IMG/VR virus record: IMGVR_UViG_3300020185_001680
Coordinates: 1,727 to 65,726 of that record
DNA from: a virus
Lineage: Duplodnaviria > Caudoviricetes
Reading direction: 5' to 3' (one strand)
DNA length: 64,000 nucleotides
In this document: positions 11,395 to 27,004 of the stretch, piece after piece
How positions within the stretch are numbered: position 1 is the first letter of the stretch
Layout: every line of letters begins with the position of its first letter
Program-made: the position numbers and the translations under genes
The notes under the pieces: model-generated
What the model was told of the DNA's origin: nothing
Database searches by the model: none
Seen by the model: only the letters and a program-made list of their open reading frames with translations

Positions 11395-11742
11395 TTATTG
11401 TGGGAGGTCAGTTTTTACGTCACCGAGTGCTTGGTCGTTTGCCATAGCACCTACGTCAACCGCATCGTCTTGCTCTGCGTCTGGGTCAACTGTGTCGTTT
11501 GGTATTTTGCCTTTGGGAACAATACTGTTTTCATCTGCACTACTAACGACATCCATGTCGTTAAGTGCTTTGACAAGTTCATCCGTGCTCATCAAAAATC
11601 CATCGTCTGCGAGGCTCTTACGGAACTCTTCCGTTGGTATCTCACTAACGTCGGACCCAACTTGCTGTGCTATTCTATCACTTATAGCAAGTTGTAAGTC
11701 ATCGAAGTATAGTTCGAAGAGTAATACTTCGTTAATTTTCAT
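11395..11742 (-). CDS. Acidic hypothetical protein, putative head/internal protein
   Basis: 115 aa, leader MKINEVLLFE. Confidence 0.65.
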   Translation of the reverse strand: MKINEVLLFELYFDDLQLAISDRIAQQVGSDVSEIPTEEFRKSLADDGFLMSTDELVKALNDMDVVSSADENSIVPKGKIPNDTVDPDAEQDDAVDVGAMANDQALGDVKTDLPQ

Positions 11743-13026
11743 TTAAAGCTCTACTGGTGCTCTACCTAGTGGCTCATCTTCTGGGCCAGCCGCGGCAGGT
11801 ACATTATCCAATGCAGGTTCTTCACCGCCTAATGCAGGTTCTTCTTCACCGCCTAATCCAGGCTCCATTCCAGGTTCAGCACCTAACATGCTTCCATCAC
11901 CTGTACCAGTTAATCCAGCAATAACTCCGTCAAGTCCATCTTTACCTGCTTTGTTACTGTCTAGTACTGCTGTTAAAGTTTGTTCCATTGTCTGCTTCAT
12001 TTGAACAGCCTGTTCTGCACCAAACTCTGATTTCATTTGATCTAATATAGCAGGAAGATCTTCATTAATCATTCTGCCAACTCTTTCAACGTGGTCTTGT
12101 ACATCGTCTGCTAAGGCTCTAAGTGCCATAACAACTTCTGCTTGTTCTACTTCTACTTCTTCATTAATCATTTCATCAATGATATCGTCAAACATGCTTT
12201 CTTTAGCGTCTTGTTTCTTTTCGTCTTTTGTGTCGCCAGTTACTGTGAATTCTTCGCCGTCTACTTCAAAAGAATCTTTACCTTGTGCAATAGCGTCTTT
12301 TCTAGCACCTGTAAATTTATTTTGTTCTGCAACTTTTTTACCAAACATTTGAATACCGTTTGCAACTGCATCTTCTTCTAAACCGTTTAGGAAGCCAACA
12401 ACTGAGTCTCTGCTCTTGCCACTTACTTCTGCAAACATATTTAATTTTTCTTCAATTGCCTTTAATGCTTCAACATTGTCTATTTCCATTCCAACTTCTT
12501 TCGCCATTTCTTGGAACAAGTATTCATTGATATCTGTCTCAGGAAATGCTTCAGCAACTTCTTCGCTCATTGAGCTACATGCTTCCATGTAATCTTTAGC
12601 CGCTTTAAGTACGATCGGTAAAACAAATTCATCGTCATGTGCATATCGGGAATCTTTACGGAATTTGTTCATACATTCTTTACTTGCTTCGTCCATTGTG
12701 TAACCGCCGTCCATTAAGTCTTTAACTTCAGTAGTAATACCTGCTTTCATTTCTTGCATTGCAGGACTTTCAGCGTATACGCCTTCGTTAATCATCACGT
12801 CAATAATATCTCTAACGCCTAAAAACTTTGCGTATTCTGGATCTAAGTTAAACTTACGATTTGTGTTTCGTAATCTAACGAGCGTTTGCTCTGCTTTTTC
12901 TTTAATGCTTTCAAGTTTGCCTTTACTGTGCAAACCTTTTACTTGCACACCGTGAGCCTCTTTCAGATATGAATTAATTTCTTTAATCCTTTTCTGAGGC
13001 GTTTGGTTAAAATTTGTTATTTTCAT
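11743..13026 (-). CDS. Acidic helical protein, candidate prohead core/scaffold protein
   Basis: 427 aa, Glu-rich, several internal INE sites, Gly/Pro/Glu C-terminal tail; late box at 13060-13067. Function inferred. Confidence 0.5.
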   Translation of the reverse strand: MKITNFNQTPQKRIKEINSYLKEAHGVQVKGLHSKGKLESIKEKAEQTLVRLRNTNRKFNLDPEYAKFLGVRDIIDVMINEGVYAESPAMQEMKAGITTEVKDLMDGGYTMDEASKECMNKFRKDSRYAHDDEFVLPIVLKAAKDYMEACSSMSEEVAEAFPETDINEYLFQEMAKEVGMEIDNVEALKAIEEKLNMFAEVSGKSRDSVVGFLNGLEEDAVANGIQMFGKKVAEQNKFTGARKDAIAQGKDSFEVDGEEFTVTGDTKDEKKQDAKESMFDDIIDEMINEEVEVEQAEVVMALRALADDVQDHVERVGRMINEDLPAILDQMKSEFGAEQAVQMKQTMEQTLTAVLDSNKAGKDGLDGVIAGLTGTGDGSMLGAEPGMEPGLGGEEEPALGGEEPALDNVPAAAGPEDEPLGRAPVEL

Positions 13027-13102
13027 GTTCTTTCCCGATAAAAGTTAAATTGTTATTTGTATTTATCAAAAACTTATAAAAACAGTATAAAAAAATAAGC
13101 CG

Positions 13103-13573
13103 TTAGTAAGAACTATGTATGTGGGAATGTAAATGGTCTTTACAATGACGTAAATGCATCATTGACATGTCTGCTCTACTCTCTACAACATAGAATTTTT
13201 CGCTATCTTTAGTAGTACGCATAGTGTGTCTATAAAACACTAAATCGTTGTAATGCTTTGCTACCTCATCTTGATACTTGAAAATAGCAGAGTTAATTAA
13301 ATGTATTGTGGGATTAAGTTTTTTTGTGGGAGTAGACTTTAGTGTTGTTACTATTGTTCTTGCTGTTTCCGGCAAATAAACATCTTTACATACTATTTTT
13401 TTGTTAGTAGCATTAATAATATCAAACAACCCTTCTTTTGTTTTCACAGAGAAGTATAAACCTTTAGCCAAGACATTTTTAGTTGCTGTTTCCAACTTCT
13501 TAGCAACTTGTTTTTTGTCTAGGTTAGTCGTTTTTTTGTGCGACTGCTTTGTACTTTGCTTTGCCATTATCAT
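13103..13573 (-). CDS. Hypothetical protein
   Basis: 156-aa ORF overlapping the upstream gene end. Confidence 0.65.
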   Translation of the reverse strand: MIMAKQSTKQSHKKTTNLDKKQVAKKLETATKNVLAKGLYFSVKTKEGLFDIINATNKKIVCKDVYLPETARTIVTTLKSTPTKKLNPTIHLINSAIFKYQDEVAKHYNDLVFYRHTMRTTKDSEKFYVVESRADMSMMHLRHCKDHLHSHIHSSY

Positions 13574-13739
13574 TTACTCTTAATACTAATCCACGTTGTC
13601 TTAATTGTTGGGCTGTATATAACTCATTTTCATTAAGCTCATACTCGTATATACCTTTTTCATGTGATAATTTGTCAAAGAAGTGAAATTCTTTCGAACT
13701 TACTACGGTGGGTCCATTCTTAGATGCTAAAATTCTCAT
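13524..13739 (-). CDS. Hypothetical protein
   Basis: 71-aa ORF starting 1 nt after the previous stop. Confidence 0.65.
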   Translation of the reverse strand: MRILASKNGPTVVSSKEFHFFDKLSHEKGIYEYELNENELYTAQQLRQRGLVLRVNDNGKAKYKAVAQKND

Positions 13740-13740
13740 G

Positions 13741-13941
13741 CTACCTCTTAATTAGTGTAGATTCTTTTTTAGTCTTAGGGCCTGGCTTCTTATGAGCCCA
13801 CTTAGTTTTCTTGGGCTTCTTTGGACGTTGGGCTATACGCTGTGCGTCATTGGCAATTGGCTTTATTACTGTTGCAACTGCGCCGGCGCTCATGCCTCCA
13901 ACTGATGCTGTTTCGTTTATTATAATATCTGAAATCTTCAT
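13741..13941 (-). CDS. Small basic protein with putative capsid-targeting leader
   Basis: MKISDIIINE-TASVGGMSAGAVATV... then a Lys/Pro-rich tail; GATAAATA 5 nt upstream of ATG. Confidence 0.7.
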   Translation of the reverse strand: MKISDIIINETASVGGMSAGAVATVIKPIANDAQRIAQRPKKPKKTKWAHKKPGPKTKKESTLIKR

Positions 13942-13959
13942 ACTGTTATTTATCTTTCT

Positions 13960-15213
13960 TTAAAAGATTTTAGTAAAATCTGTATACACTTTTAGCCAGT
14001 CGCTTGTATCTTTTCTAATATTTTCTAAAATGAATGTACAATTGTCTTGAAATATGTTATAATTATGTTCAGCACATTCAATACTTTGCTCAACTACGTC
14101 TTGCCACATAGCAGGATTGTCCTTTTTCATTTGTAATATTTCTAAATTATCCACCAACATATCAATTTTGTGTATAATGTTTGTTTCAGTATCATATAAT
14201 TGCATATTGTCAAACAAATGGTCGTATGTTTTATATCCCATTTGTTGTAAATGTTGATTTATACGGTTTGGGCCAAGCAATATAAACGGTTGCTTTTGTA
14301 TGATAGGCTTAAAAACTTTTTCAGTAAAGTATAAACAATTGCCTACGGTGGATTCTGTTATTAATTGTATGTCGCAGTCAAACATGTTAGCATAAAACGT
14401 ACTACTATTACTCATAGTTCTCATATGGACAATATCGTCATCTCTGTCATCAAACTTTATAGGGTAATTTTGCGACAATGCTTCTAAATAATTAACACCT
14501 TTTTGTATGTCTGCAATACTTGTAAGATTTTTACTAAAGTATTCCATTGTGTTTGCTGTAATTTTTTCAAAAGGCACATCTGGACTGCTTAGTATATTAT
14601 CTTGTAGCCTGTGCTTTATAAATGCTCCTAATAATAATGCTCTGTGTGGCTTGGGTGCATTGTTTAAGCAATTAAATAAATGTGTTTTAGGTGTGCTAAA
14701 ATCAAATTCATCGTTAATTTCTAACTCAAGCATTGTGTCTTCTTTATAATTCCTAGTGTATAGCACATCAAAAGTGTCGTAGTTAAACGTTTTAAATATA
14801 TCTGCTATATTGACGCAACTATTACCGTAAAACACTGTAGTGAGCTTGTATGACTGTGTAACTTGGTGAATAAACTCGAATATGTCCTTATCGCAATGCC
14901 CTTCTGCCCCATTCTCAAACAGAACTATTGCATGTGGGTTGTTTGTTATAAACTTAGGTATTAGTAAATGTTCAGTGTTGTACTGTTGCCATGTGTTAAA
15001 AATTACACTGGAATCGAATCCGTCTAGACTAATCACATACAATACAGGTTCCATTAAGTAAACAGGTTGATCTTTATGATTAGGGTGTGTCCAATTAAAA
15101 CATTCGTTCATTGCAAATATAGATTCACGTGAAGTTGCTGGTACATGAGACACATCAAGGCCACAGTCTTGCATAAATTGTTTAAATGGATTATGGATGT
15201 CCGCTATAAGCAT
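13960..15213 (-). CDS. Glycosyltransferase-like protein (paralog 1)
   Basis: FNCLNNAPKPHR...LITES...FTEKVFKPIIQKQPFILLG...LQQMGYKTYDHLFD..YD, a GT-B-like C-terminal signature shared with 27005-28213 and 45247-46245. Confidence 0.6.
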   Translation of the reverse strand: MLIADIHNPFKQFMQDCGLDVSHVPATSRESIFAMNECFNWTHPNHKDQPVYLMEPVLYVISLDGFDSSVIFNTWQQYNTEHLLIPKFITNNPHAIVLFENGAEGHCDKDIFEFIHQVTQSYKLTTVFYGNSCVNIADIFKTFNYDTFDVLYTRNYKEDTMLELEINDEFDFSTPKTHLFNCLNNAPKPHRALLLGAFIKHRLQDNILSSPDVPFEKITANTMEYFSKNLTSIADIQKGVNYLEALSQNYPIKFDDRDDDIVHMRTMSNSSTFYANMFDCDIQLITESTVGNCLYFTEKVFKPIIQKQPFILLGPNRINQHLQQMGYKTYDHLFDNMQLYDTETNIIHKIDMLVDNLEILQMKKDNPAMWQDVVEQSIECAEHNYNIFQDNCTFILENIRKDTSDWLKVYTDFTKIF

Positions 15214-15225
15214 AGCAGTATTTAA

Positions 15226-16719
15226 CTATTTCTTTTTCTTACCGGACTTCATGTTGGCACACCAGTGGTACATTTTTGACTTCTCTCCACTGCTGTCTTT
15301 TGCTTTTTTGCGTAGACTTGTAACTGAACCATCACAACTAGCGCCAGACTTCTTTACTCTGCCTGGACGACTTTTGCCTTTCACTTTGCCGTCAGCAAAG
15401 TTTTCGTCTAAAATTTCATCCGGTACTTCAAATTGCCATACAGTTGCTTGACCTTTATCATGCATCATTGCTGTAAGCCTAGTGTTACCGCCTATCAATT
15501 CCTTGTGCCCATCACTGTAAACAGCCACAATAGGCATTTCTACTTTACCACTTTTTAATTGTGCTGTTGCACGTTTTTGTTTTTGTGGATCCAATGTTTT
15601 AAAACTGTCAACATCTGCCGCATCTGTGTTGTTGATATCTTTGGCGCTCACAATAGTTGTTGCTTTTCCTTTACTAGCAAGTTCGACCCAACCGTCTTTG
15701 CCTAATTTTTTAAACTCTGGATAACGTTGTGCTTCATCCCATTCCACATCAAACTGTGGCTTATTCATTTTTGTTTCCAACAGATTCTTAAAGTAATTTT
15801 CTGCCATTACTGCTCTGTCACTTGTGGTGTGGTCAAATGCTTTCATTACGTCTTCAATGTCTGCATCTATCATTATAGTTTTTACTTTCTTAATACCTAA
15901 TACATTGGCGGCATCAAATCTATGATGGCCATTAATAAGGTATCCTTTCTTATCTACTATAAACGGCTTGTCTTCGTTGTTTAAAAATACATCCTGAGAC
16001 TTCTTTGCTAATCCGTCTACACGCTGAGTCTGTACAGGCTTAATTTTGTCTATGCTCATTGTTCCTTCTTTGTACTTGAACTCTGAGCCTACTAAATGTT
16101 TTCTTTTAATTTGTGGTAATTGATTTCTATCAAATGTTTTCTCATATACTGGTCTAGTATAACTTTCTTCTACGCTCTTTCTTAAACGTACAACTCCACA
16201 TGCTAACCTATCACCTGCGTTACCTGTTTTAAGACTTTCTTCATCTCCGCCTGTGCCTAAGTCATCTTCATCAGCATGTATAACTATTGCTCTACCAACA
16301 ATACTTCTGTCGCCGCTTAGGTCAATACGCCTTGCAACAATTTTAAATCTTGCTATACCATCGTCATTGGCAACTATGTTTCCTAAATCACCTATATGCC
16401 CGTCTGATAAGCCGCCATGGTCAACACCTTCTGGATTGTAATGCCCACCAGCACTTTCACAACCTTTACTAAGGTCCCCAAATTCATGTACATGGAATCC
16501 GTGCTTGCCTGATGTAAGTCCTTTTATTATACCTCGTATAATAGTAGGCTTGCCGGGGTCTTGTTTCATAACTATAGCACCACTGATATCGCCTTCAGTG
16601 TGTTCTAGTTGTACAACTGCTTTAACTACTTCCTGTGCTTCTTGTATAGCACTTAAACTACTGCACTCGCAAGTCTTTGCTTTTGTTCGTGGACAACTTG
16701 TAAAGTTTGTCGTTCTCAC
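15226..16719 (-). CDS. sodC: Cu/Zn superoxide dismutase fused to two ParB/Srx-like domains and a basic C-terminal module
   Basis: GFHVHEFGD, GCESAGGHYNP, DHG, GHIGDLGNI, SIVGRAIVIH, GNAGDRLACG (all metal ligands and Arg present); PFIVDKKGYLINGHHRFDAA and MPIVAVYSDGHKELIGGNTRLTA are ParB-like motifs. Confidence 0.9.
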   Translation of the reverse strand: MRTTNFTSCPRTKAKTCECSSLSAIQEAQEVVKAVVQLEHTEGDISGAIVMKQDPGKPTIIRGIIKGLTSGKHGFHVHEFGDLSKGCESAGGHYNPEGVDHGGLSDGHIGDLGNIVANDDGIARFKIVARRIDLSGDRSIVGRAIVIHADEDDLGTGGDEESLKTGNAGDRLACGVVRLRKSVEESYTRPVYEKTFDRNQLPQIKRKHLVGSEFKYKEGTMSIDKIKPVQTQRVDGLAKKSQDVFLNNEDKPFIVDKKGYLINGHHRFDAANVLGIKKVKTIMIDADIEDVMKAFDHTTSDRAVMAENYFKNLLETKMNKPQFDVEWDEAQRYPEFKKLGKDGWVELASKGKATTIVSAKDINNTDAADVDSFKTLDPQKQKRATAQLKSGKVEMPIVAVYSDGHKELIGGNTRLTAMMHDKGQATVWQFEVPDEILDENFADGKVKGKSRPGRVKKSGASCDGSVTSLRKKAKDSSGEKSKMYHWCANMKSGKKKK

Positions 16720-19700
16720 TATAGTACACCTTTGTTAAGACTTAACTGAGCCCATTGCTCTCTACCAGCGCCTGCTTGTGTTGGTATAACACTAATTGAC
16801 GTTGACATTGAATGTCCGCTACGTCTAAATGCAATCAAATCTTTTTCATTCTTAATCATTGCAGTTTTCATATTAGGTATACTTATTAGCAATAGCCCGT
16901 CAAAATCATCTCTGTCCTTATACCATAAGAAGTTTTGTGTTAAGTAAACATTTTCAAGTTGGGTTATATCCGTCTGCGTTGCTATAGCATCACATAATGG
17001 GCCAGCATAGCCTTCCATATCCATTGTGAATAGTTCCTGTGCTATTGCTTTTCTTACTTTCTGATTATTTACATCAGTTGCTGGTAAGTCTACGTTCAAA
17101 CCGTTTATAAATTTAGTCCAACCTAAACTTCCACCTTGTCCGCCAATGGATGACATAACAGTTGGAATGTATTCTGCGTACTTGTCGATAACTGCTCTCT
17201 TAGCCTTTTGACTTCCGCCGCCGTAACCAATTCTTCCGCCTGTGCTACTAGTAGCCGCTTTAAGTTCTACTTTGCCTATGCCCTTGATCTCCAAGTCACC
17301 TTCACCTTCTGCAAGGCTAATCTGATTACTTAAACATGCCAAGCCATATTCACCTGGACCTTTTTGGTTAACACCAACACCATATGATGTTAATGCCCTA
17401 AAGGCTGATATAGATATATCATCTCCGAACACTGCTTGGAAACTGTTAATAGGTTTGTCTAACTCTTTAATGTTTACTACAGTGCCTTGTTTCTCTAAAC
17501 GTGCTATGAAGCCGCTCATTGTGCCGTAGTCGCTGTCTAGTCCGCCGATTATCCTTGTTACATCTTGTATAACTTTTGATTTTTGCTTATCTGATAGTGG
17601 CTCGTCCATTAATGGAAAACTAAATGCTTTGTCTAAGGTTTTACCAATATGGTCACTGTTAAGTAATTTGTAAATTCTATCTAGTATATTAGCATGTTGC
17701 TCATTGCTGGCATCTAGTCCGCTAATAGTTTTAATAATAGTATCTTTTTCAACACCTAAGTCAGTATACTCGTTAATTAGTTTAGTAACGTGCTGTTTGC
17801 TCCATTCAGTCATTCTAATTTTTGCTTTTGTTTCGTCGGGTAAAACACCTACAAACATTTGCAATATGTTTCTAGCACATGCATCATCGCCTGCTTCAGC
17901 TCTTAGTTGTCTAAAATGATCTAACATTGCAGGTACAGGAATCGCCTGGTAGGCTAACATCTGTTTTTTAAGATCTCCTACTGGAAAATGATCTGACATT
18001 AATCTGTTAATAGTATCTACTTGTTTAAAGTCTGGTACACTTTCTTCGATATTAGCATGGCTCATATTTCGATCATGTACATATGAACCAGGGTCTTTTT
18101 CAAATTCTTTATCTTTAATTTTTTTAAGATCCCTTTGATCTTTAGTAAAACCTTTATTGTTAAATCCAAACGAACCTTTAGGCTTTCTGCCAATCTGAGG
18201 AATTTTCTTTATACTTTTAATCCCTAACTCTTTTTTGCTGACATCTTTTCCGTTGCCTAATTTCCTTCTGACACCATATGTACTCTGTGCTATCACTTCT
18301 TCAGTTCTACCATCTTTGTATGATACTTTCCATTTATGGTATCCACTAGGTAAATCATCTTTGTTTTCGTAAAGTTTATCAATTTTGTCTTTGCTAACTT
18401 TATTAATAATATTAATTTGCTCTTCTAATGGCAAACCGTCGAATTCATCGAATGCATTTTCTTTATTCATTTTCCATACCGTTGCTGATGTTGGACTAAA
18501 AGGTTCACCATCTGGGCCCTTTGCTACATCTGGTGTAACTAATGGAGCAAAGTTAGGTTCTCTACCGTCGCCCAATTCATCAGTGAACTCTACTCCTCTT
18601 TTTTGTAGTATTTGCTTAATGTTAGATTCGTTATAAGATACAAAATGGTCAAATACACTTTCGTAATCGTAGCCGTATTTGTTTATAAATCTAGTTTTCA
18701 TTTCCTCAGCAACTGGCCATCTCCAGTTATCTTTATATTTTTCTGGATTATTTAATATTTCAATAGCATCTCTAATTGCACTGCTGTGTGCCCAGGGCAT
18801 AATTAGTATATCCTTGTATTGAGTTGCATGAATTGAACCAGGCTGTTGAAGTCTGGAAGTTAATTCTCTTTCGCCTAGTGTACTAAGCTCTTTAGCAAAT
18901 TCTTTTTTGACCATTACGTCACCACCAAAACTAAATGCTTTTATCTTAGCAATTGATGGATCGCCATGTTTCTTCATAAACTGTTTTTGTTTTTTAGGAA
19001 GTTGTTTTTTCTTGTCAACATCAATACCAGTACTATCAAAGCCTAACTCTTTGCCGAGCTTGTCTACTGTGTTTATAAACTTAGATATAGCATCAGTTCT
19101 AGTCTTAATTAGTTCAGGCAGTTTGCCTCTAGTAAATACGTCAGCACCATACTTTGCTTTAGCAAGATGATTTCTTTCGAATACATCATTTAAATATGTT
19201 TGTAGTTGTTGCTGTACTTGAATTAAAGGAGTTTCAGAAAAAGGATCTGCTCCAGCTGGGTTTGCCAACTGTCTAGCAATTGTTGTCAATGTTTCTGCTT
19301 GTGACGATCTCATACCAAAGTAATCTAGACCATCTTGTGACATACCGTGAGCCTCATCACCTTTTAATGAAGGGTCCATTTCTGGCATCATTTTATCTGT
19401 GGCTTGTACCGCTGATAATAATTCTGTTAAAGATTTACTTACAACCTTTAGCATATCGTAGTGTTGTGCTGGTTGCACATCTTTCATACGTTGTATTTCT
19501 TCAAATCTCTTTCTTAAGTTAATTTGCATTTTACTAAGTGCATTATCTGTATAAGAATCATCTCCGCTTACTTGTGGGTTATGACCTTTCTTAACTGGGT
19601 GGTTCCACTCTTCATAATCTGCTAAGTGAGTGAGTAATTTCTTTAGTCCTGCTTTATTAACTGGAGAGCCTACTGGAAACCAACTGTTGTCACTATTAAT

Positions 19701-22427
19701 GCCGGTACTGTTATAAGAACCTCTTGTCATATCTTGATTGAATTTTTTAAATTCATTCTTGTTAACACTATCCCATGCCGCGGCTACTGTTTCTGCATTT
19801 ACATTAGTAGCACTTGCTAAAGCATTAAAGAATTTTTTATTTTGTTCGCCATCTTGTAATGCACCACTTTGTGATGCCGACCACATTCCCTTAACAATTT
19901 TGTCACTTTCTGGTCCACTTAAAAAAGCAGGAAGTGTAATAATACTTTTCTTAAATAATTTGTCAACACCGTTTTGTATTGTGGTTAACTTCTTTTGTGG
20001 TGTTGATTGTGCCTGATTAGGAACTTGTACTCTATCTTCTTGTTGTAGTATTAATTTAGCCAACTTATCATATGTAAGTTCAAAGTCTGCTAGAGATTTT
20101 CTAAATTCACCAATGGATTTCGCATTAGGTTTTGCTCTACTTTTGTTTGAACTAAGGTCAAATCCTGCCTGTCCAATTGCCAGTGCAAAGTTTTCCTGTG
20201 CTTTTTTCAAATACAATGGTGCTTGTTTACTTGGTGCTTGTTTGTAAGGCCTTGTAATAGGTTCCTGTGCCTGTAAAGGCTCCATTTCTTCTACTTCTTC
20301 TACTTCCACCTTCTTGCCTGTTCTCTCTTCATAATCTGCAAGTGCTTGTTTCCACTGCTCATCTGCATTTGGCTGAGAGAATTCTCTATATCTAATTAGA
20401 CTGTTTACTGCTACAGCAACCGAATCCATTGAATCAATGTAAATGGCTTTATCAAAGTAGTCTTTAATAACATCTACAATAGGTAGTTCTACATCGAATC
20501 TACCTTTAACACGTTCTATATCTTTTGCATCAATTTCATCTAAACTGTTTATTAGTTTGAATAATGCTTTTACATAGTCTGCATTATACATTTTATCACT
20601 GTATGCCGCACTTAATGTTTCAGCATAACGTATAACTGCTTTTGCGGCTGTATCAAAGTTTAAATGATAGTCATTGCCGCCACCAATTCTAAATTCGATA
20701 AGTTGATTACCTGTCTGACTATCAGTTTGGTCTTTAAAGTTTATAGAACTAAACTTGCCTGGATTAATACCTTTTTTAAGAATATTTTCTATGTTTTTTA
20801 TAGTCTTGGTGTTTTCTGGACTCGATTTTAAGTCTTGTGCGGCTTTCTTTAAACTTTCAATCTGTGACTTTGCATAACTGTTGTTTGATCTACCAAATGT
20901 ACTCAACAAGTATTTGTCGCCTAACAGTACAGCAAGTTTAACTGGATTTACTTCTTCCTTTTCTTCGCTGTCTAAACTCATTGTAATGTGTAATCCACAA
21001 CTACTGTTCGTTTCTACATTTTCCTTTTGGAACCAATCGAACAGGCTTTTCATTTCTTCCAGCATTTGCTTAGGTGTATCGTAAACAGGAGAAATGACTT
21101 CTGCGCCTGTGCCTTCATCTGCATCAATACTGGTGTCAGTCTCTACACGCCAAAAGTCATTGTTAGTACCATAACTCGAGTGATATTCACCATGTTCCAC
21201 ATCATCACTAACTTTACTGTTATCGGTGGCCCAATTTCTTAACATGTCTGCTACTTCACCTACACCTTCGCCTGAGCCGTTTTCGTTATACAAGTAAATA
21301 CCGTGTTCACCTAAACAACTACTCCAACTACCGTATTCTCTATTAGCCCAGTCATCGTGATCATATTCAGATTCAGCTGTCTCAACTGCTGTTTCTAATG
21401 CTTCGCCATTGTCTCTGATTTTCTCTTCGAGCCACTCAATGTATTCATCTTCTCGTTGTTCTTCGGTATACTGTCTGCCCCATGCAATAAAGTCCCAATC
21501 TTCAAACTCTTCTTTTTGCTCATCGTCCATACCTTCTAATTCTTCTTCTTTGTACGCTTCTATATCATCTTCGTCTAGCATTGATTCAACAAAATCATTT
21601 AACTCATCTTCATCTTCTTTTCTATCTGCGACTAAGTCTTGCATTATGTCGCCTTCTAAATCATATGCCTTTTCATAAATCCATTCTCTGTATGCTTCAT
21701 TGATTGTGTCAACACTGCCACTGCCTTCTTGGTCTCTAATAAATTCTTCAATGTCGTACCAATTGTATTCGTACAACCAGTCGTCGTCATCACTTCCTCT
21801 GTCCATAACATCCTGGAATACTGTTTCTGCTTCGAATCCACATTTAATAGGACTGTTAAGTGCCTGCTGTGCAATATTTTTTCTATTAAAGTTTATTTCA
21901 AATATTTGTTCAGGTCCTTGTTCACGCAATTTAAATTTACGCACAAGTTTTTTCATGCCTGTTTTTATTTTGTTTAGTTTAAGATTTGATGAATTAGACT
22001 TACTCAACTTGGAAAGTTTACTAGCATTAAGTACTTGTACTTCTTCATCTGGGTCGACTAATTGGTACTCACCTTTAGGATCTTGTATTACAACTTTGTC
22101 TGGATTTGGATTGTTTCCAACTTTACTAACTACTTTTCCTGCTACTTCGCCTTTATCGTTGTGGTATTCTGCATCAACTTCTATATCCTTTGCTTTAGAC
22201 TTCGTGTAAGTTGGTTCTACTTTCTCAGGCTCTGCATCTTTAACATCTAACCCAGGTGTCACTGTTGGACTACCTTTATCTACTTTAGTAGTTGTAGGAG
22301 TTGTAGGTTTAGCATTTGCTTTTGCTGTTGCCCCAGTCTTTTGTTGACTAGTGGGTGTACTTGCTCCAGAACTCATACCATATTCTGCTAGTACACTTTC
22401 TAAAGTTCTCACATCCGTAAATTTCAT
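16719..22427 (-). CDS. 1902-aa polyvalent protein: putative amidoligase (COOH-NH2 ligase) domain plus C-terminal PD-(D/E)XK-like domain
   Basis: CGFEAE, ETDTSI, GAEVISP, TNSSCGLHITMS, KFSSIN, IEFRIGG; C-terminal GPGEYGL...GEGDLEIKGIGKVELKA. Confidence 0.75.
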   Translation of the reverse strand: MKFTDVRTLESVLAEYGMSSGASTPTSQQKTGATAKANAKPTTPTTTKVDKGSPTVTPGLDVKDAEPEKVEPTYTKSKAKDIEVDAEYHNDKGEVAGKVVSKVGNNPNPDKVVIQDPKGEYQLVDPDEEVQVLNASKLSKLSKSNSSNLKLNKIKTGMKKLVRKFKLREQGPEQIFEINFNRKNIAQQALNSPIKCGFEAETVFQDVMDRGSDDDDWLYEYNWYDIEEFIRDQEGSGSVDTINEAYREWIYEKAYDLEGDIMQDLVADRKEDEDELNDFVESMLDEDDIEAYKEEELEGMDDEQKEEFEDWDFIAWGRQYTEEQREDEYIEWLEEKIRDNGEALETAVETAESEYDHDDWANREYGSWSSCLGEHGIYLYNENGSGEGVGEVADMLRNWATDNSKVSDDVEHGEYHSSYGTNNDFWRVETDTSIDADEGTGAEVISPVYDTPKQMLEEMKSLFDWFQKENVETNSSCGLHITMSLDSEEKEEVNPVKLAVLLGDKYLLSTFGRSNNSYAKSQIESLKKAAQDLKSSPENTKTIKNIENILKKGINPGKFSSINFKDQTDSQTGNQLIEFRIGGGNDYHLNFDTAAKAVIRYAETLSAAYSDKMYNADYVKALFKLINSLDEIDAKDIERVKGRFDVELPIVDVIKDYFDKAIYIDSMDSVAVAVNSLIRYREFSQPNADEQWKQALADYEERTGKKVEVEEVEEMEPLQAQEPITRPYKQAPSKQAPLYLKKAQENFALAIGQAGFDLSSNKSRAKPNAKSIGEFRKSLADFELTYDKLAKLILQQEDRVQVPNQAQSTPQKKLTTIQNGVDKLFKKSIITLPAFLSGPESDKIVKGMWSASQSGALQDGEQNKKFFNALASATNVNAETVAAAWDSVNKNEFKKFNQDMTRGSYNSTGINSDNSWFPVGSPVNKAGLKKLLTHLADYEEWNHPVKKGHNPQVSGDDSYTDNALSKMQINLRKRFEEIQRMKDVQPAQHYDMLKVVSKSLTELLSAVQATDKMMPEMDPSLKGDEAHGMSQDGLDYFGMRSSQAETLTTIARQLANPAGADPFSETPLIQVQQQLQTYLNDVFERNHLAKAKYGADVFTRGKLPELIKTRTDAISKFINTVDKLGKELGFDSTGIDVDKKKQLPKKQKQFMKKHGDPSIAKIKAFSFGGDVMVKKEFAKELSTLGERELTSRLQQPGSIHATQYKDILIMPWAHSSAIRDAIEILNNPEKYKDNWRWPVAEEMKTRFINKYGYDYESVFDHFVSYNESNIKQILQKRGVEFTDELGDGREPNFAPLVTPDVAKGPDGEPFSPTSATVWKMNKENAFDEFDGLPLEEQINIINKVSKDKIDKLYENKDDLPSGYHKWKVSYKDGRTEEVIAQSTYGVRRKLGNGKDVSKKELGIKSIKKIPQIGRKPKGSFGFNNKGFTKDQRDLKKIKDKEFEKDPGSYVHDRNMSHANIEESVPDFKQVDTINRLMSDHFPVGDLKKQMLAYQAIPVPAMLDHFRQLRAEAGDDACARNILQMFVGVLPDETKAKIRMTEWSKQHVTKLINEYTDLGVEKDTIIKTISGLDASNEQHANILDRIYKLLNSDHIGKTLDKAFSFPLMDEPLSDKQKSKVIQDVTRIIGGLDSDYGTMSGFIARLEKQGTVVNIKELDKPINSFQAVFGDDISISAFRALTSYGVGVNQKGPGEYGLACLSNQISLAEGEGDLEIKGIGKVELKAATSSTGGRIGYGGGSQKAKRAVIDKYAEYIPTVMSSIGGQGGSLGWTKFINGLNVDLPATDVNNQKVRKAIAQELFTMDMEGYAGPLCDAIATQTDITQLENVYLTQNFLWYKDRDDFDGLLLISIPNMKTAMIKNEKDLIAFRRSGHSMSTSISVIPTQAGAGREQWAQLSLNKGVL

Positions 22428-22430
22428 GTA

Positions 22431-22712
22431 TTATCGCCTGTTTAATGTTCTTAATCTTCTACTTGCAGGATTAAGTCTTTTTGTTCTTTGCGACTTTCTA
22501 GAAAGTCTTTTGCCCATTCTTGCTTTTGTTTTTTTCAACGTCATACGTTTTTTCATATTGATAGGAGCAGAACATTGTGCTGGGCTACTAACTACTCTAC
22601 CTTTACGCCTTCCGCTAGTACATCTAACAGCACGTTTGATCTTCTTACCGCTTCTACGCCAAACCATTCTGGCTTCAGTAATTGTATCTTCTGTTATATC
22701 TTCTAGTCTCAT
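22431..22712 (-). CDS. Highly basic small protein (protamine-like) with acidic leader
   Basis: MRLEDITEDTITE followed by an Arg/Lys-rich region with two Cys. Confidence 0.75.
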   Translation of the reverse strand: MRLEDITEDTITEARMVWRRSGKKIKRAVRCTSGRRKGRVVSSPAQCSAPINMKKRMTLKKTKARMGKRLSRKSQRTKRLNPASRRLRTLNRR

Positions 22713-22960
22713 TATTTTCCAAATACATTAACCATCAAACCGATTACTACAGCAATAAGTGTTGTAAAACTAGTACCAACTATTGCTACCAACCAGTTCT
22801 CTAATTTATTAAGTCTTTGTTTTGTATCGTCTTTGAATTCTCTTAGTTCAGTAGTGATACTTTCTATTCTCAGCATGTCTGCAATAATGTGTGCTTCTAA
22901 GTTGCCCTTTTCTGCATACACTTCTTGTTCAACTGGTTTTGGTTGATTACGTTCTTCCAT
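22712..22960 (-). CDS. Small coiled-coil protein with C-terminal transmembrane helix (XhlA/holin-like architecture)
   Basis: ...KQRLNKLENWLVAIVGTSFTTLIAVVIGLMVNVFGK. Confidence 0.55.
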   Translation of the reverse strand: MEERNQPKPVEQEVYAEKGNLEAHIIADMLRIESITTELREFKDDTKQRLNKLENWLVAIVGTSFTTLIAVVIGLMVNVFGK

Positions 22961-22961
22961 T

Positions 22962-23366
22962 TTACAATAAATCCTGTTTAGTAAATTCCATATTAATACT
23001 TGTTTTAGTATTAATTGTCCCGTCGTTTAAAACGACAAGGTCTAACTCGTCTATCAATGTCTGTACCGTATGTGCTCCGGGCTGTTCTGTTGCGAACTTA
23101 AAGATATAACCTGCACCTGTTAAACTTGGTGCTCCGTAATTCTCTAGTAAGTTCTGCCCTATACCATTTAAAAATACAGGATTATTCATCACTGTTGGCA
23201 TAGCTCTCAAACCAATTACCTGAACAACGCTCTCAAAATCTTTCTGTGTAGCATCTGCAAAATCACCAGTTACGGATATATCTAAAGATGTAAACAGTGT
23301 AAAAAATTCTATGTTACCAGTTAGTACTTCAACTGATCCCATTGCTCCTGTTCTTGTCATACTCAT
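22962..23366 (-). CDS. Small virion structural protein candidate (paralog family member 3)
   Basis: Start revised to MSMTRTGAMG (ATG 23366, GGAG RBS, late box 23390-23397). Confidence 0.65.
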   Translation of the reverse strand: MSMTRTGAMGSVEVLTGNIEFFTLFTSLDISVTGDFADATQKDFESVVQVIGLRAMPTVMNNPVFLNGIGQNLLENYGAPSLTGAGYIFKFATEQPGAHTVQTLIDELDLVVLNDGTINTKTSINMEFTKQDLL

Positions 23367-23432
23367 GTGTGTCTCCGTGTTATTTGTAGTATTTATCATT
23401 ATACACAAAAATATGGCTCCGGAACGAAAGCC

Positions 23433-23462
23433 AAAAAAAAGCACACCGTAGTGTGCTTTTTT
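23433..23462. terminator. Bidirectional rho-independent terminator
   Basis: A8-GCACAC-CGTA-GTGTGC-T6. Confidence 0.85.
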
Positions 23463-23484
23463 AAAAGTTGTAAAGTAGTTAAAC

Positions 23485-23814
23485 TTACGCTACTCTATAT
23501 TCACCTGCTGTTGCAGTTGCGTTTGCACCGTTACCAGTTAATGCTGGTTGGATTGCCGCTAATACTGATGCCGCTGAAGGTTGACCTTCTACTGCTACAT
23601 GCATTACTGTTGCTGAAACAGAAGTAATAATTACTGGTGTACAGATTGTTGCTAAAGCTGAAACTAATGCTTCACCTTTGTTTGCCGCACCTGCTGTGAA
23701 ACCAAATGAACTGATGTCATCTACTCCGTCTACTTCGTCGATGATGAAGTGGCTTAAAGAACCTACTAATAGTTGTCCTTCTGCTACTGCACCGTTTACT
23801 CTTGTTTGTGCCAT
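23485..23814 (-). CDS. Small Ala-rich virion structural protein candidate (paralog family member 2)
   Basis: MAQTRVNGAV...; AGGAG RBS, late box 23866-23873, own terminator. Confidence 0.75.
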   Translation of the reverse strand: MAQTRVNGAVAEGQLLVGSLSHFIIDEVDGVDDISSFGFTAGAANKGEALVSALATICTPVIITSVSATVMHVAVEGQPSAASVLAAIQPALTGNGANATATAGEYRVA

Positions 23815-23883
23815 GTTAATCTCCTAAACTTGGTTGTATGCTCTTCAGCATACGCTTGTTACTTTTATTTATCTAAATCAGTC

Positions 23884-23914
23884 AAAAAAAAGCACCAAGT
23901 AAATGGTGCTTTTT
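23884..23914. terminator. Bidirectional rho-independent terminator
   Basis: A8-GCACCA-AGTAAA-TGGTGC-T5. Confidence 0.85.
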
Positions 23915-23935
23915 CATTGTTTTTATTACAATTTC

Positions 23936-24304
23936 TTATAGATCGAAAGCAGTAATTGTTGCTAATGCTAAGTTAACACCGTCAACTGTGCCCAATGAAA
24001 TAATAACGTCTTCTAAGTGAGCCGCTAATGTTTCTGAGTTAGTTCCATCATAAGTGTCAGTACCGTGTTCGCCTTCAAAAAGGATTCTAAGTCCTTGTCC
24101 AGCTCCACCTGTTGCGTCGACTGTGCCAACTGCTACTGGTGTTAAACCTTCAATACCAAATGCTTTTAATACTGAATCAACACATCCGCCTACAGCCAAT
24201 TTAGCTGAAACGTCTGCACCGAAATCGATCTGGATACCTGCTAAAGGTAGACCACTGTAGTGACCAGCGGCAACTGCCGCCCCTGCGTTTTGAGTTTGTG
24301 CCAT
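23936..24304 (-). CDS. Small Ala/Gly-rich virion structural protein candidate (paralog family member 1)
   Basis: MAQTQNAGAAV...; AGGAG RBS, late box 24336-24343, own terminator. Confidence 0.75.
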   Translation of the reverse strand: MAQTQNAGAAVAAGHYSGLPLAGIQIDFGADVSAKLAVGGCVDSVLKAFGIEGLTPVAVGTVDATGGAGQGLRILFEGEHGTDTYDGTNSETLAAHLEDVIISLGTVDGVNLALATITAFDL

Positions 24305-24376
24305 TTTTATTCTCCTAAAATGTATATGTTACACTTATTTATGCCAATTGGCTTAAAAATAGTTTTAATTATTGTA

Positions 24377-24892
24377 TTATTTAGGAGTAGTGCCGATAAT
24401 ATTCTTAAGTTGTTGTGCCCTTTTAGATGCTCTATTCTTGCCAGCATCGAAGTTTGCCTTCCCAGTTTGTTTAACATCAAAGGATGAAGGGCCTTTTGGA
24501 GCCTTAAGTTCTCTACCTTTTCTTAAATGTCCGTGGGTCATATCGTCCCAACCCTTGTTTACACTTTTGCTAGGACTAATGTCTAGTCCTTTCTTTTTCG
24601 TTTGCTGTGGGCTATTAGATTTTGATGTAGAAGAATTACGCCTCATTATCTTATCTTCGATGTCAGGGTGTACCTGTATCATTGCCATTTTAACTGCTAT
24701 ACCTGGAGTAATACTAGGACCACCTGTGGTAAATTTGCCAATTGCTACGGACTTTACAGCCGCCTTGTCTACTCCTTCGTATCCGGGGCGTCTGTTTCCA
24801 GGAGGACCTATCTCATCATCAATCTCACTGTCAATCATTTCAGCAGTTGATTGTTCTTCTTCTAAGTTTTGTACAATTTCGTAAATCTTCAT
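24377..24892 (-). CDS. Hypothetical protein with putative capsid-targeting leader
   Basis: MKIYEIVQNLEE; exact T4 late box TATAAATA (24898-24905) 5 nt upstream of ATG. Confidence 0.7.
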   Translation of the reverse strand: MKIYEIVQNLEEEQSTAEMIDSEIDDEIGPPGNRRPGYEGVDKAAVKSVAIGKFTTGGPSITPGIAVKMAMIQVHPDIEDKIMRRNSSTSKSNSPQQTKKKGLDISPSKSVNKGWDDMTHGHLRKGRELKAPKGPSSFDVKQTGKANFDAGKNRASKRAQQLKNIIGTTPK

Positions 24893-24900
24893 ATCTATAT

Positions 24901-25644
24901 TTATACCTTTTTTCGTCCACTGGCCCAGTAGCCTGCAATCTTTCCTATACCTGAACCAGTTGTGCCTTGTATTTTAGTCTTAGTAAGTGTTGGTATTACT
25001 GGACTGTCCTTATAACCAGACTTTTTACTAGTGTCAGTATACTTTCTTTCTCTTTTCATAGCATGTAAATGCTCGTATGAGTCACTTGCTTTGCCTCTTA
25101 GCATTGTTTGTTGTTGCATTAACTTAGATACCACAAACTGTTTTTGGGCATATTTTAAATCTTCCCAATCTATAATTAAACGCCTTAACTGTTTGAACAA
25201 AGAGTTTGTTATTTTTAATTGTGTTTCCAATCTTACAAGGAATGCTGTTGTCTCACTTCTATTCGGTGGACGCACAGCCATTCTTTTTATAAAATTAAAA
25301 TGTCTTCTGTTTTGAAATTGTACAGATTTTAATAGTTTTTGTTCTCTAGTAGAGATGTTTAAACTTTGATACTCCGGATTATCTAAAGCAAACGCCAATA
25401 CATATATATCAGTTGATGTTGTTCTAAAAAGTGCATAAGGACCAAACTGTGTTGTCTTTCTTGCATAACCAACAGAGTAATCTCGTTGCTTAGAGTCTCT
25501 GTTAAACATAATAAGTTGTAGTGTTTGCAAATACAGTAGGTCTGCAATAGACCTACCTTTAAGCATACCAAAGTTACTTGTTGTTCTTAATAATTTGCTC
25601 TCTGATAAATCCTGGTTTATCATTTGGAAGTCGTATTGTGCCAT
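24901..25644 (-). CDS. Hypothetical protein
   Basis: Start revised to MAQYDF (ATG 25644, 1 nt after the upstream stop). Confidence 0.7.
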   Translation of the reverse strand: MAQYDFQMINQDLSESKLLRTTSNFGMLKGRSIADLLYLQTLQLIMFNRDSKQRDYSVGYARKTTQFGPYALFRTTSTDIYVLAFALDNPEYQSLNISTREQKLLKSVQFQNRRHFNFIKRMAVRPPNRSETTAFLVRLETQLKITNSLFKQLRRLIIDWEDLKYAQKQFVVSKLMQQQTMLRGKASDSYEHLHAMKRERKYTDTSKKSGYKDSPVIPTLTKTKIQGTTGSGIGKIAGYWASGRKKV

Positions 25645-25645
25645 A

Positions 25646-26959: not shown

Positions 26960-27004
26960 ATTAACTCACTGTTAAGTTACATGTATTTATCACATTATAA
27001 CAGT

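Follow-up and report, generated by a model that had tools for sequence, protein, structure and literature searches.

The window, i.e. the whole stretch of 64,000 nucleotides analysed from virus record IMGVR_UViG_3300020185_001680 (Duplodnaviria; Caudoviricetes), encoded on its minus strand a protein of 497 residues (15226..16719; 497 codons and a stop). It consisted of a short leader, a Cys-rich CxC peptide, a Cu/Zn superoxide dismutase (SOD), two ParB/Srx domains (the first with NGHHR, the second, divergent one with GGNTR) and a 58-residue basic tail. The fusion of an SOD, two ParB/Srx-like domains and a basic tail with a Glu site in each linker, proposed in an earlier note made from the sequence alone, was confirmed. 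The gene started with a GTG that overlapped by 1 nt the TAG stop of an upstream 1902-residue ORF, and no in-frame ATG was found upstream of the SOD domain in the 15226..16719 ORF. This overlap raised the possibility of a read-through or frameshift fusion with the upstream ORF, which was ruled out by the homologous genes in three related loci (L002, L067 and L005): they begin with their own ATG at the equivalent position, so that the GTG start is sound and the 497-residue ORF is a separate gene. An assembly chimera, a possibility mentioned in the earlier note, was rejected because the SOD-ParB-ParB-tail architecture recurs across independent assemblies, with versions of 494-498 residues in five 90%-identity clusters (P0002, P0003, P0006, P0009 and P0011).

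Domain composition of the 497-residue protein

Behind the leader, residues 9-27 (16639..16695, minus strand) formed a Cys-rich peptide (CPRTKAKTCEC...) containing the CxC triad and ending at I-Q-E27, and residues 28-185 (16165..16638, minus strand) formed a eukaryote-type (E-class) Cu/Zn SOD ending at V-E-E185. The identity of this domain was established directly: Pfam Sod_Cu (PF00080) matched residues 46-177 (E = 7e-45; 153.1 bits for a cut-off of 28.9), and the best matches among solved structures were eukaryotic SOD1 proteins (E = 1e-44 to 1e-41, residues 33-181). The copper ligands (H76, H78, H93, H148), the zinc ligands (H93, H101, H108, D111, with H93 shared between the two metals), the C87-C174 disulfide and the catalytic R171 all aligned with their human SOD1 counterparts, which bears out the intact SOD1-like domain described previously, as did inspection of the N-terminus, devoid of a hydrophobic core, for the reported absence of a signal peptide. 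R178 aligned with G150 of human SOD1, in place of the E-class glycine at the dimer interface, and the phage SOD is therefore predicted to be monomer-prone by the sequence criterion of PMC8382915. In structure-based alignments, identity was 42-44% with human SOD1, 35% with the Megavirus SOD and 27-34% with bacterial SODs, and the Atlas neighbours were Uroviricota and Eukaryota clusters; this ranking and these neighbours point to the eukaryote-type class only and not to the origin of the SOD.

The CxC peptide was followed by the SOD sequence in 75 of 75 occurrences, at a fixed spacing of 54-56 residues, and every SOD among the 292 proteins carried the peptide. Stand-alone SODs of 181-195 residues were abundant, the peptide being present in 114 of 120 among the matches listed, and the full ...F-T-E form of the leader was found in stand-alone SOD relatives. 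The same type of SOD with its CxC peptide is already published as a 'proteobacterial' enzyme: 'Group 2' CuZnSODs are described with an N-terminal CxRTxAxxCxC peptide (Wright 2021, Mol Biol Evol, PMC8382915), which C9-P-R-T-K-A-K-T-C17-E-C19 matches. As described in that paper, Group 2 enzymes share with the phage domain this N-terminal motif, the E-class disulfide and loops, a bulky residue (here R178) at the position of human Gly150 and the absence of a signal peptide, and recombinant RbCuZnSOD was active both as a monomer and as a dimer. The published proteins are stand-alone, of about 19.7 kDa and assigned to Proteobacteria, whereas the present SOD comes first among the modules of a phage fusion; the tie to RbCuZnSOD consists of the shared motif and of close relatives in sister MAGs.

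The first ParB/Srx-fold domain and its linker occupied residues 186-315 (15775..16164, minus strand), with the N263-G-H-H-R267 signature and the linker sites M-A-E307 and L-L-E315. Residues ~190-300 matched the pNOB8 ParB N-terminal domain (5k5d; Z = 8.3, rmsd 2.9, 92 aligned residues), sulfiredoxin (6ky4; Z = 8.2), PadC, SerK and KorB; N263, G264, H265, H266 and R267 were each invariant in 39 sequences, and Pfam ParBc_2 scored 16.6 bits, under its cut-off of 23.6. The second, divergent domain (residues 316-439; 15403..15774, minus strand) contained G-G-N-T-R, with G-N-T-R invariant or nearly so, and ended at L-D-E439. The eight best structure matches of residues ~321-438 all belonged to the ParB/Srx superfamily with weak scores (Z = 6.5 to 4.0, none reaching 8), and no Pfam match was found. 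Of the two ParB/Srx-like domains claimed earlier, the fold of the first was thus upheld (Z = 8.3), while support for the second was weaker (best Z = 6.5, no Pfam match). The gene of L002, otherwise 98% identical, was devoid of exactly residues 319-437, i.e. a 357-nt in-frame cassette (15409..15765, minus strand) that corresponds to this second domain.

The basic tail (residues 440-497; 15229..15402, minus strand) started with N-F-A-D-G-K and was the most conserved module of the family. Its 58 residues included 18 Lys and Arg (pI 10.3) together with C462, H485 and C487, in agreement with the Lys-rich Cys/His tail noted before, and were predicted to form a helical hairpin. Among 39 proteins, 47 of the 58 residues were invariant. 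Nucleotide identity of the tail was 74%, with 21.3 synonymous versus 7.7 non-synonymous differences over 54 codons. Judged from these codon differences, strong purifying selection acts on the protein sequence of the tail, which at such a nucleotide identity argues that the tail is more than a DNA joint.

Leader, Glu-ending joints and module shuffling

The C-terminal part of the protein had 2974 homologues among the 4699 candidates examined, and the family comprised 1754 clusters at 50% identity and was heavily shuffled. Its modules recurred as cassettes in many orders, behind nucleotidases, kinase-like domains, GH19, sigma-r4 and IF-1-like domains. Cargo domains among 104 representatives were NT5C (10), Sod_Cu (9) and Zeta_toxin/AAA (3), with single cases of GH19, PG_binding_1, Sigma70_r4, IF-1, Pol-beta NTase and PolyA_pol; by their sequence assignments, these types would suit an immediate-early role. 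The tail was C-terminal in 216 of 291 family proteins, internal in 15 and missing from 60. Fission of the fusion was also observed: the L060 locus carried four genes, each with its own leader, encoding an SOD ending in ...L-S-E-stop, a protein with the first ParB domain, a third protein, and a leader joined to the second ParB domain and the tail. The huge shuffled family, the CCS-like CxC peptide, the presence in print of this SOD type and the tail as the constant part had all been overlooked in the earlier note.

The leader (residues 1-8; 16696..16719, minus strand) followed a family-wide pattern, M-[RK]-x-x-[EDQN]-hydrophobic, found in 209 of 289 family proteins versus 34 of 2669 internal Met controls, and was conserved as residue classes ([RK], [ED], hydrophobic) in front of unrelated downstream modules. 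Residues 1-6 of the present protein fit this pattern; the Glu usual at positions 8-9 in most family leaders was missing, and the first [L/I]-x-E site was E27.

The hydrophobic-x-Glu sites reported at every domain boundary were recovered, with corrected numbering, at E27 (I-Q-E), E185 (V-E-E), E307 (M-A-E), E315 (L-L-E) and E439 (L-D-E). Six of the 11 hydrophobic-x-E sites of the protein fell within the 85 linker residues and five within the 412 domain residues (Fisher p = 0.005, with linkers defined after the fact); because these five lie inside folded domains, presence of the motif is not sufficient to define a cut site. Sites of the strict T4 form ([L/I]-x-E) numbered three in the whole protein, all of them at module joints, and the SOD/ParB joint was V-E-E rather than the strict motif. 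In the structure model, all five candidate Glu residues lay in segments with pLDDT <50 (1-42, 149-186, 302-317 and 439-453), and the ParB modules between them were confidently folded. The suggestion that these sites lie in disordered linkers thus agreed with the model, with pLDDT being weak evidence at E27 and E185 since low values in the SOD part reflect a shallow alignment and not disorder; E27 and E185 were located 5 and 4 residues, respectively, outside the stretch aligned to the ends of human SOD1.

Glu-ending joints were also observed across the family. A Glu preceded N-F-[A]-D-G in 304 of 321 occurrences, with a hydrophobic residue at P3 in 273. In the 70 junction zones listed, the sequence ahead of this Glu-N-F-[A]-D-G motif was of more than 60 unrelated kinds, and the motif was also present at internal joints. 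Of 479 non-redundant junction zones, 344 contained a hydrophobic-x-E site, compared to 39% of 5585 control windows, and no enrichment was detected in the junction zones when E was swapped for Q, K, R, S, T, A or G. The ends of local alignments coincided with a hydrophobic-x-E site in 16% of cases (2.3% in the background). The Glu-ending linkers could also have been kept as recombination joints instead of cut sites.

Genomic context and relatives

The window was colinear over 47 kb with the cultured phage PA5oct (117-164 kb) and included terminase, tail sheath, UvsX and gp32-like genes. The leader was present on nine of its 85 minus-strand ORFs, all within 11.4-29.4 kb, in a block (11395..29373, minus strand) colinear with PA5oct 148-158 kb; they encoded proteins of 386, 437, 171 and 93 residues, the 1902-residue giant, the 497-residue protein, and proteins of 66, 427 and 115 residues. 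The giant (16719..22427, minus strand), encoded immediately upstream, had a similar leader and an Amidoligase_2 domain (residues 416-551), and recurred as a syntenic partner at 22 of the 80 related loci. The structural-gene context was observed directly, as sequence matches identified the 427-residue protein (11743..13026, minus strand) as a weak homologue of PA5oct EST35_0237, and a 160-residue protein (22962..23444, minus strand) as a homologue of EST35_0234, both being structural proteins by ESI-MS/MS. Among the annotated PA5oct genes matching the leader, five of 10 encoded virion proteins by MS versus 93 of 461 genome-wide, with these counts being small and chosen after the fact (PMC7318152), and the leader pattern was no commoner in PA5oct ORFs than in the background (12/712).

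PA5oct carried a Peptidase_S77 (the T4 gp21 family), and a Peptidase_S77 gene was located beside a Gp23-type capsid gene in two of five partial genomes with family members. No Peptidase_S77 match was obtained in the 65.7-kb record of the window (17% complete), nor in eight of the 10 related partial genomes searched; as all of these are incomplete (17-65%), the missing gene says little. The absence of a head module from the window is expected, since in PA5oct it lies ~30 kb past the point matching the window end. Two neighbouring candidates for head functions were discarded: the 427-residue protein as a gp22-type scaffold, which did not resemble the ORF that separates the protease and capsid genes of two related genomes (G002 and G005), and a 214-residue ORF (10731-11375) as a prohead protease, which had no Pfam match. 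The word TATAAATA, which we take to be the T4 late-promoter word, was not enriched (4 found for 8.35 expected), and late timing is therefore unsupported.

A tblastn search of 50,697 phage records with the whole 497-residue protein and a 964-residue family member matched only SOD, generic ParB and nucleotidase sequences. No cultured relatives of the second ParB domain, the tail or the small basic modules were found in these records, and no virion proteome was found to contain the protein or a relative of its second ParB domain or tail. In the literature, no paper was found that combined superoxide dismutase, jumbo phage and ParB; 'superoxide' and 'ParB' were absent from the main text of the jumbo-phage papers PMC7824862 and PMC9123017, and the phrase 'capsid targeting sequence' was absent among the matches listed for cyanophages, marine phages and jumbo phages.

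Proposed role as head cargo and competing explanations

Our tentative interpretation is that the phage is a marine jumbo myovirus with PA5oct and T4 as distant relatives and that the 497-residue protein is a polyprotein carried as cargo in its head, a reading to which we give slightly less than an even chance; its targeting, cutting, injection and physiological role are what we infer from the comparisons above. The short N-terminal leader would address the protein to the assembling prohead, like the T4 capsid targeting sequence, where a gp21-type prohead protease would cleave the flexible joints on the C-terminal side of their Glu residues (E27, E185, E307/E315 and E439). The putative products would be a monomer-prone Cu/Zn SOD of ~16.6 kDa, two ParB/Srx-fold domains handling nucleotides or DNA, and a basic peptide of 6 kDa, which may be packed alongside the DNA and delivered with it into the host. 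The CxC peptide may aid copper loading or disulfide formation of the SOD before being removed by cleavage, and the SOD may clear superoxide as soon as infection begins, or shield the packed DNA beforehand. The idea of a polyprotein cut by the prohead protease, already put forward in the earlier note, gained comparative support from the leader, the Glu joints, cassette gain and loss, the split genes, the gp21-type protease in relatives and the colinearity with PA5oct; on the other side stand the absence of relatives from virion proteomes and of a protease gene from the contig fragment that holds the window. Protection of the capsid contents or of the injected DNA against ROS, the purpose suggested there for the SOD, would have the SOD of chlorovirus PBCV-1 as its only precedent. 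This protein (A245R) is described as late and virion-packaged (Kang et al. 2014, via PMC7019647), and it resembles the present one in being a virus-encoded eukaryote-type SOD; it is made late, carried in the particle and linked to reduced superoxide early in infection. It differs in being a single-domain protein of a eukaryotic virus, without polyprotein or ParB fusion.

The closest parallel is with the T4 internal proteins IPI-III and Alt, which are reported to carry a 10-residue capsid targeting sequence, to be cut by gp21 at L/I-x-E and to be injected with the DNA (PMC9026906). Common features are a short N-terminal tag on otherwise unrelated proteins, Glu sites with a hydrophobic P3, a gp21-family protease (here in relatives), enzymes as cargo and genes located among structural genes. 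Unlike in T4, a single polypeptide here links many modules, each joint carries a site, the C-terminus is formed by a basic peptide that hardly varies, and the leader of this protein has no terminal Glu. In phiKZ, 201phi2-1 and SPN3US, a diverged gp21 homologue is described as cleaving inner-body and ejection proteins at S/A-x-E (PMC9026906); these giant phages likewise load many proteins into the head and cleave them after Glu, in many cases more than once in a protein, whereas P3 is hydrophobic here (273/321) instead of Ser or Ala, the lineage is PA5oct-like, and no phiKZ-type genes were seen in the window.

Packaging of the whole chain without cutting appears quite unlikely. The protein would then be a polyvalent protein (Iyer et al. 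2017) injected as one chain, its ParB domains and tail tethering the SOD or other cargo to the incoming DNA, for which a basic tail and two ParB folds would be well suited. Polyvalent proteins are described as combinations of enzymes (kinases, GNATs, NTases, lysozymes) with ParB-like domains for which packaging and injection are predicted, some of them, N4 vRNAP for example, being packaged unprocessed (PMC5512222), and the SOD/ParB joint lacks a strict L/I-x-E. However, 'superoxide' and SOD do not occur in the main text of that paper, the zincin-like peptidase (MPTase) domain of polyvalent proteins is absent here, and the joints carry protease-type sites with a P1 Glu whose retention in 304 of 321 cases is left unexplained by tethering; the modules also exist as single genes, and the separate leader-bearing genes of L060 and the abundant stand-alone SODs indicate that they work apart.

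A location outside the virion is unlikely. The conserved leader classes before unrelated modules, the clustering of the window leaders in a single block that has homologues of PA5oct virion proteins verified by MS on its flanks, the purifying selection on the tail at 74% nucleotide identity, and cargo such as GH19, PG_binding_1 and Sigma70_r4, which fits delivery at entry, all argue against a cytoplasmic multi-domain auxiliary protein made during infection, whose ParB domains and tail would bind phage DNA or nucleotides while the SOD removes superoxide near replicating DNA. Such a protein, in which the leader and linkers would be start and recombination sequences, is nevertheless consistent with the lack of proteomic evidence for any relative in the 50,697 phage records searched by tblastn, with the clean cassette indel at the linkers of L002, which marks the joints as recombination points, with an AT-rich genome favouring M-K-I-type starts, with the leader pattern not being enriched among PA5oct ORFs (12/712), and with the activity of a recombinant SOD relative without any phage factor (PMC8382915). 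By far the least probable origin is a bacterial gene in which a 'proteobacterial Group 2' Cu/Zn SOD was fused to chromosome-partition-like ParB domains: close SOD relatives occur in MAGs labelled Rickettsiales and Betaproteobacteria, and Group 2 SODs are treated as bacterial in PMC8382915, but the virus record carries terminase, tail sheath, UvsX and gp32-like genes and shows 47 kb of colinearity with PA5oct, the SOD gene in MAG contigs lies within blocks of leader-bearing genes, and one SOD-bearing MAG also possessed a T4 Gp23 capsid gene (E = 1e-81).

The head-cargo polyprotein may be one instance of a general modular system, a broader proposal that we regard as doubtful but worth considering. 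An N-terminal address, Glu joints for a T4-type protease and a near-invariant basic peptide would allow almost any enzyme to be spliced in, packed, freed and co-injected; the cassette enzymes would include SOD, nucleotidases, kinase-like domains, wall hydrolases, and sigma- and IF-1-like domains, and the eukaryote-like 'proteobacterial' SODs would be phage cargo genes. If so, these phages would be using a polyprotein strategy that has not been described for phages, in which the small head-loaded protein set of T4 is expanded in abundant ocean phages to a combinatorial toolkit of thousands of clusters. This toolkit would decide what reaches the host cell in the opening seconds of infection, and could serve as a natural cassette-based model for loading chosen enzymes into phage heads. 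A bacterial virus would also contain an active eukaryote-type SOD able to exist as a monomer. The 'proteobacterial' attribution of Group 2 SODs probably stems from MAGs into which phage contigs had been binned, and the published argument on proteobacterial precursors of eukaryotic SOD1 would then need a second look.

Architecture of the SOD-ParB gene product

The SOD-ParB gene (15226-16719, minus strand) encoded a 497-residue protein with four modules (SOD, ParB1, ParB2 and tail). Its GTG start overlapped by one base the TAG that ends the upstream 1902-aa ORF, and an AAAGG stretch stood a few bases ahead of it. Since the close relatives at loci L002, L067 and L005 start at the same position with ATG, the start was judged reliable and the ORF a gene in its own right.

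The Cu/Zn SOD module (residues 28-185; Pfam E 7e-45) was intact and SOD1-like, as the earlier note had claimed: the metal ligands, the catalytic Arg and the eukaryote-type disulfide pair all aligned, and the closest solved structures were eukaryotic SOD1 (E about 1e-44). The position of human SOD1 Gly150 aligned with Arg178, a substitution tied to weak dimerisation by Wright (Mol Biol Evol 2021; PMC8382915). The Cys-rich peptide before the SOD (C9-P-R-T-K-A-K-T-C17-E-C19) fitted CxRTxAxxCxC, the motif given by the same author for "Group 2 proteobacterial" eukaryote-like Cu/Zn SODs, in a paper that also compares their CxC triad to CCS copper-chaperone domain 3. The Group 2 representative RbCuZnSOD (19.7 kDa) is described as binding Cu and Zn and as active in both monomer and dimer. 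This SOD type with its CxC peptide is already in print in that paper, where it was assigned to Proteobacteria. Among 292 family proteins, the peptide was followed by SOD sequence at a fixed spacing in 75 of 75 occurrences (four of which, with a Y-for-F variant or a 78-aa fragment that the SOD pattern overlooked, were checked by eye), and no SOD lacked it. SODs with 45-50% identity to the domain were also found on giant-virus MAG contigs (L058 and L059, GVMAG records).

ParB1 (residues about 190-300), the NGHHR-containing domain of the earlier note, matched the ParB/Srx fold as proposed (5k5d, Z 8.3, rmsd 2.9, 92 aligned; sulfiredoxin, Z 8.2), and its N-G-H-H-R was unchanged across 39 relatives. 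For ParB2 (residues 321-438), proposed as a second such domain with GGNTR, the best eight structural matches were all ParB/Srx (sulfiredoxins, Osa, PadC, SerK, SbnI, KorB and pNOB8 ParB), but with Z of only 6.5 to 4.0. The domain gave a confident model (mean pLDDT 87.6 for residues 318-497). ParB2 was assigned with moderate confidence as a ParB/Srx-like domain.

The tail (residues 440-497) was basic (pI 10.3) and predicted to form a helical hairpin, for which a structural search returned no informative match. Forty-seven of its 58 residues were invariant across 39 proteins with different cargo, and among 291 proteins it was C-terminal in 216, internal in 15 and absent from 60. DNA identity was just 74% over 47 distinct tail coding sequences, with on average 21.3 synonymous versus 7.7 non-synonymous codon differences (of 54 codons), and this mostly synonymous divergence indicates strong selection on the peptide itself. 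The tail represents the constant part of the family. It is not obligatory for SOD-ParB1 proteins, since a common natural variant (P0131/P0135; 321 aa; on 61 and 29 contigs) carried a short Lys-rich end right after ParB1 and no tail. Basic mini-modules of about 20-30 aa, with two Cys 12-24 residues apart, recurred between larger modules, as did long spacers rich in Gly/Ser/Asp that led into Lys runs (P0010, P0033, P0035, P0155, P0157; L060 10774-11505); the tail resembled the mini-modules in its two Cys and basic character.

Module shuffling and the joints

The region behind the SOD had 2974 homologues among 4699 candidates examined, and matched 1754 clusters at 50% identity (1168 with E <1e-10) among the 1.84 billion representatives of the library searched. 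The best 120 matches displayed many module orders: SOD-ParB1-ParB2-tail, SOD-ParB1-tail, SOD-ParB1-other-tail, ParB1-spacer-ParB2-tail and other cargo-ParB2-tail. A Pfam scan of 104 representatives of 280-723 aa (excluding the 20 longest and those below 280 aa) detected NT5C (10), Sod_Cu (9), Zeta_toxin/AAA kinase-like (3), single PolyA_pol, GH19, PG_binding_1, IF-1, Sigma70_r4 and Pol-beta NTase domains, and some DUFs, most of their sequence having no Pfam family.

The L002 phage, whose neighbouring genes were up to 100% identical to those of the window, possessed a SOD-ParB gene with 98% identity over nt 16-954 and 91% over the tail, lacking exactly 357 nt, i.e. the ParB2 cassette (residues 319-437). 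At L060, four genes occupied the same locus right after the giant gene, each with its own leader: a 181-aa SOD with L-S-E as its last residues, a 384-aa ParB1-containing protein, one of 243 aa, and a 192-aa leader, ParB2 and tail protein. Stand-alone SODs of 181-195 aa were also abundant; among the best 120 short matches, 114 had the CxC peptide and 104 ended at most 16 residues from the last SOD strand. These split genes and stand-alone SODs indicate that the modules also work as separate polypeptides. The modular gene had a giant-protein homologue on one side and a homologue of the 427-aa protein (11743-13026, minus strand) on the other in 22 of 80 related loci (two by short matches only), and in five of those 22 it lacked the SOD.

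The earlier note had placed a hydrophobic-x-Glu site at every domain boundary. Such sites were concentrated in the linkers, with six in 85 residues (p = 0.005, for linkers defined after the fact), but five more lay within the 412 domain residues; the strict T4 form [L/I]-x-E was confined to three joint positions, E27, E315 and E439. Modelling of the full-length protein put the joints in segments with pLDDT <50. This is weak evidence at the two SOD-flanking joints, since a shallow alignment left the entire SOD part badly modelled. There, the ends of the human SOD1 alignment, which stop 4-5 residues short of both joints, are the better evidence.

The tail always started with N-F-A-D-G-K, preceded by Glu in 304 of 321 occurrences and by a hydrophobic residue two places ahead of that Glu in 273. 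Among 70 junction zones listed, this motif stood behind more than 60 unrelated upstream sequences, and it was also present at internal joints ahead of ParB2. Of 479 non-redundant junction zones, 344 contained hydrophobic-x-E, compared to 39% of 5585 control windows taken from these proteins. With Q, K, R, S, T, A or G in place of E there was no enrichment in the junction zones, and D gave a mild one (66% compared to 52%), partly because F-A-D lies within the motif. Local-alignment ends coincided with a hydrophobic-x-E site in 16% of cases (background, 2.3%). As joints are shared among related proteins, none of these joint-motif tallies consists of independent events.

Leader, cargo block and phage lineage

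An M-[RK]-x-x-[EDQN]-hydrophobic start was found in 209 of 289 family proteins with an M or V start, compared to 34 of 2669 internal Met positions. Most of these leaders ran on to a Glu at position 8-10, and unrelated modules stood behind them. The SOD-ParB leader fitted at positions 1-6 and then passed into the Cys-rich peptide, with no ending Glu. In the window, nine of 85 minus-strand ORFs bore the leader, all within 11.4-29.4 kb (11395-29373), including the giant protein, the SOD-ParB gene and the downstream 66-, 427- and 115-aa ORFs. The giant protein (16719-22427, minus strand; 1902 aa) combined the leader, a long acidic region and Amidoligase_2 (residues 416-551; 26.2 bits, cut-off 22). 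It matched no PHROG, and its cultured-phage matches (Atu_ph07, RsoM2USA) were limited to the amidoligase part. In relatives it measured 2000-2350 aa, with the modular gene always immediately downstream.

The 65.7-kb IMG/VR virus record holding the window had a CheckV completeness of 17%, implying a genome of several hundred kb. The window encoded a large terminase, a 925-aa tail sheath, a UvsX-like recombinase, a gp32-like SSB, a DnaB-like helicase and a ribonucleotide reductase. Thirty ORFs matched the cultured Pseudomonas phage PA5oct (MK797984.1), and with one exception they kept a common order (from 63.7 down to 2.4 kb in the window, 117-164 kb in PA5oct), with 44% tail sheath identity. 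This gene order and sheath identity identify the window phage as a marine jumbo myovirus distantly related to the PA5oct group. No similarity was detectable between 23.4-29.4 kb of the window and its colinear counterpart in PA5oct (148.6-154.7 kb), so this stretch was considered a variable cargo block.

Two genes nearer the window start were also annotated. A zinc-type alcohol dehydrogenase/oxidoreductase-like gene (9048-10121, minus strand; ADH_N_2 and ADH_zinc_N), with no match seen in the PA5oct comparison, lay between structural-type and RNR genes. An 892-aa protein (6312-8990, minus strand) is likely a fibre or receptor-binding protein, given its N-terminal Mtd_N (major tropism determinant) match and its colinearity with the structural PA5oct gene EST35_0241.

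Proposed packaging and cleavage, and related SODs in MAGs labelled as bacterial

In T4, internal proteins are sent to the head by an N-terminal sequence of 10 residues, and the prohead protease cleaves after L/I-x-E (PMC9026906). No Peptidase_S77 (gp21-family) gene was found in the window's record, as expected for this fragment since, by colinearity, some 30 kb separate the point matching the window end from the head module of PA5oct (81-87 kb). None was found in eight of ten related partial genomes; the other two, like PA5oct, had one, adjoining a Gp23-type capsid gene in both partial genomes. In PA5oct, the gene annotated "prohead assembly (scaffolding) protein" (EST35_0152; 84079-84711) matched Peptidase_S77 at 84157-84588 (E 7e-25), and is more likely the prohead protease.

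The earlier note's reading of a polyprotein cut by the prohead protease comprises two claims. Packaging of the SOD-ParB protein into the head is fairly probable, and if packaged, the protein is likelier than not cut at some or all joints; the two combined are the best explanation, held at slightly under even chances. The cargo block was flanked by homologues of PA5oct EST35_0234 and EST35_0237, both annotated structural and detected by ESI-MS/MS; PA5oct had neither the giant gene nor the SOD-ParB gene. Leader-pattern ORFs numbered 12 of 712 in PA5oct, and five of the ten that were annotated genes encoded MS-detected virion proteins, compared to 93 of 461 genes overall (PMC7318152), in a small sample chosen after the fact; one of the five stood right after the portal gene. 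That the protein is not packaged at all is rather improbable. Packaging without cleavage, as a polyvalent protein, is unlikely; against it stand the split genes, each with a leader, and the Glu retained at the joints. In a packaged and cut protein, the SOD would quench superoxide at entry or protect the packed DNA, a role for which the virion-packaged SOD of PBCV-1 offers a precedent (PMC7019647).

Close SOD relatives (69-70% identity including the leader) occurred in MAGs titled Betaproteobacteria TMED41 and Rickettsiales MED657, as stand-alone CxC-SOD genes inside leader-bearing blocks (L084-L086; NHCU01000066.1, NZHE01000001.1 and NZHE01000019.1). The neighbours of the SOD gene in MED657 formed such a block, and this MAG also contained a capsid gene of the T4 Gp23 type (E 1e-81). 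The contigs probably represent phage sequence that was binned into bacterial MAGs, a view drawn from TMED41 and MED657, the MAG used in PMC8382915 being TMED131; they bear on the "Group 2 proteobacterial CuZnSOD" of that paper.
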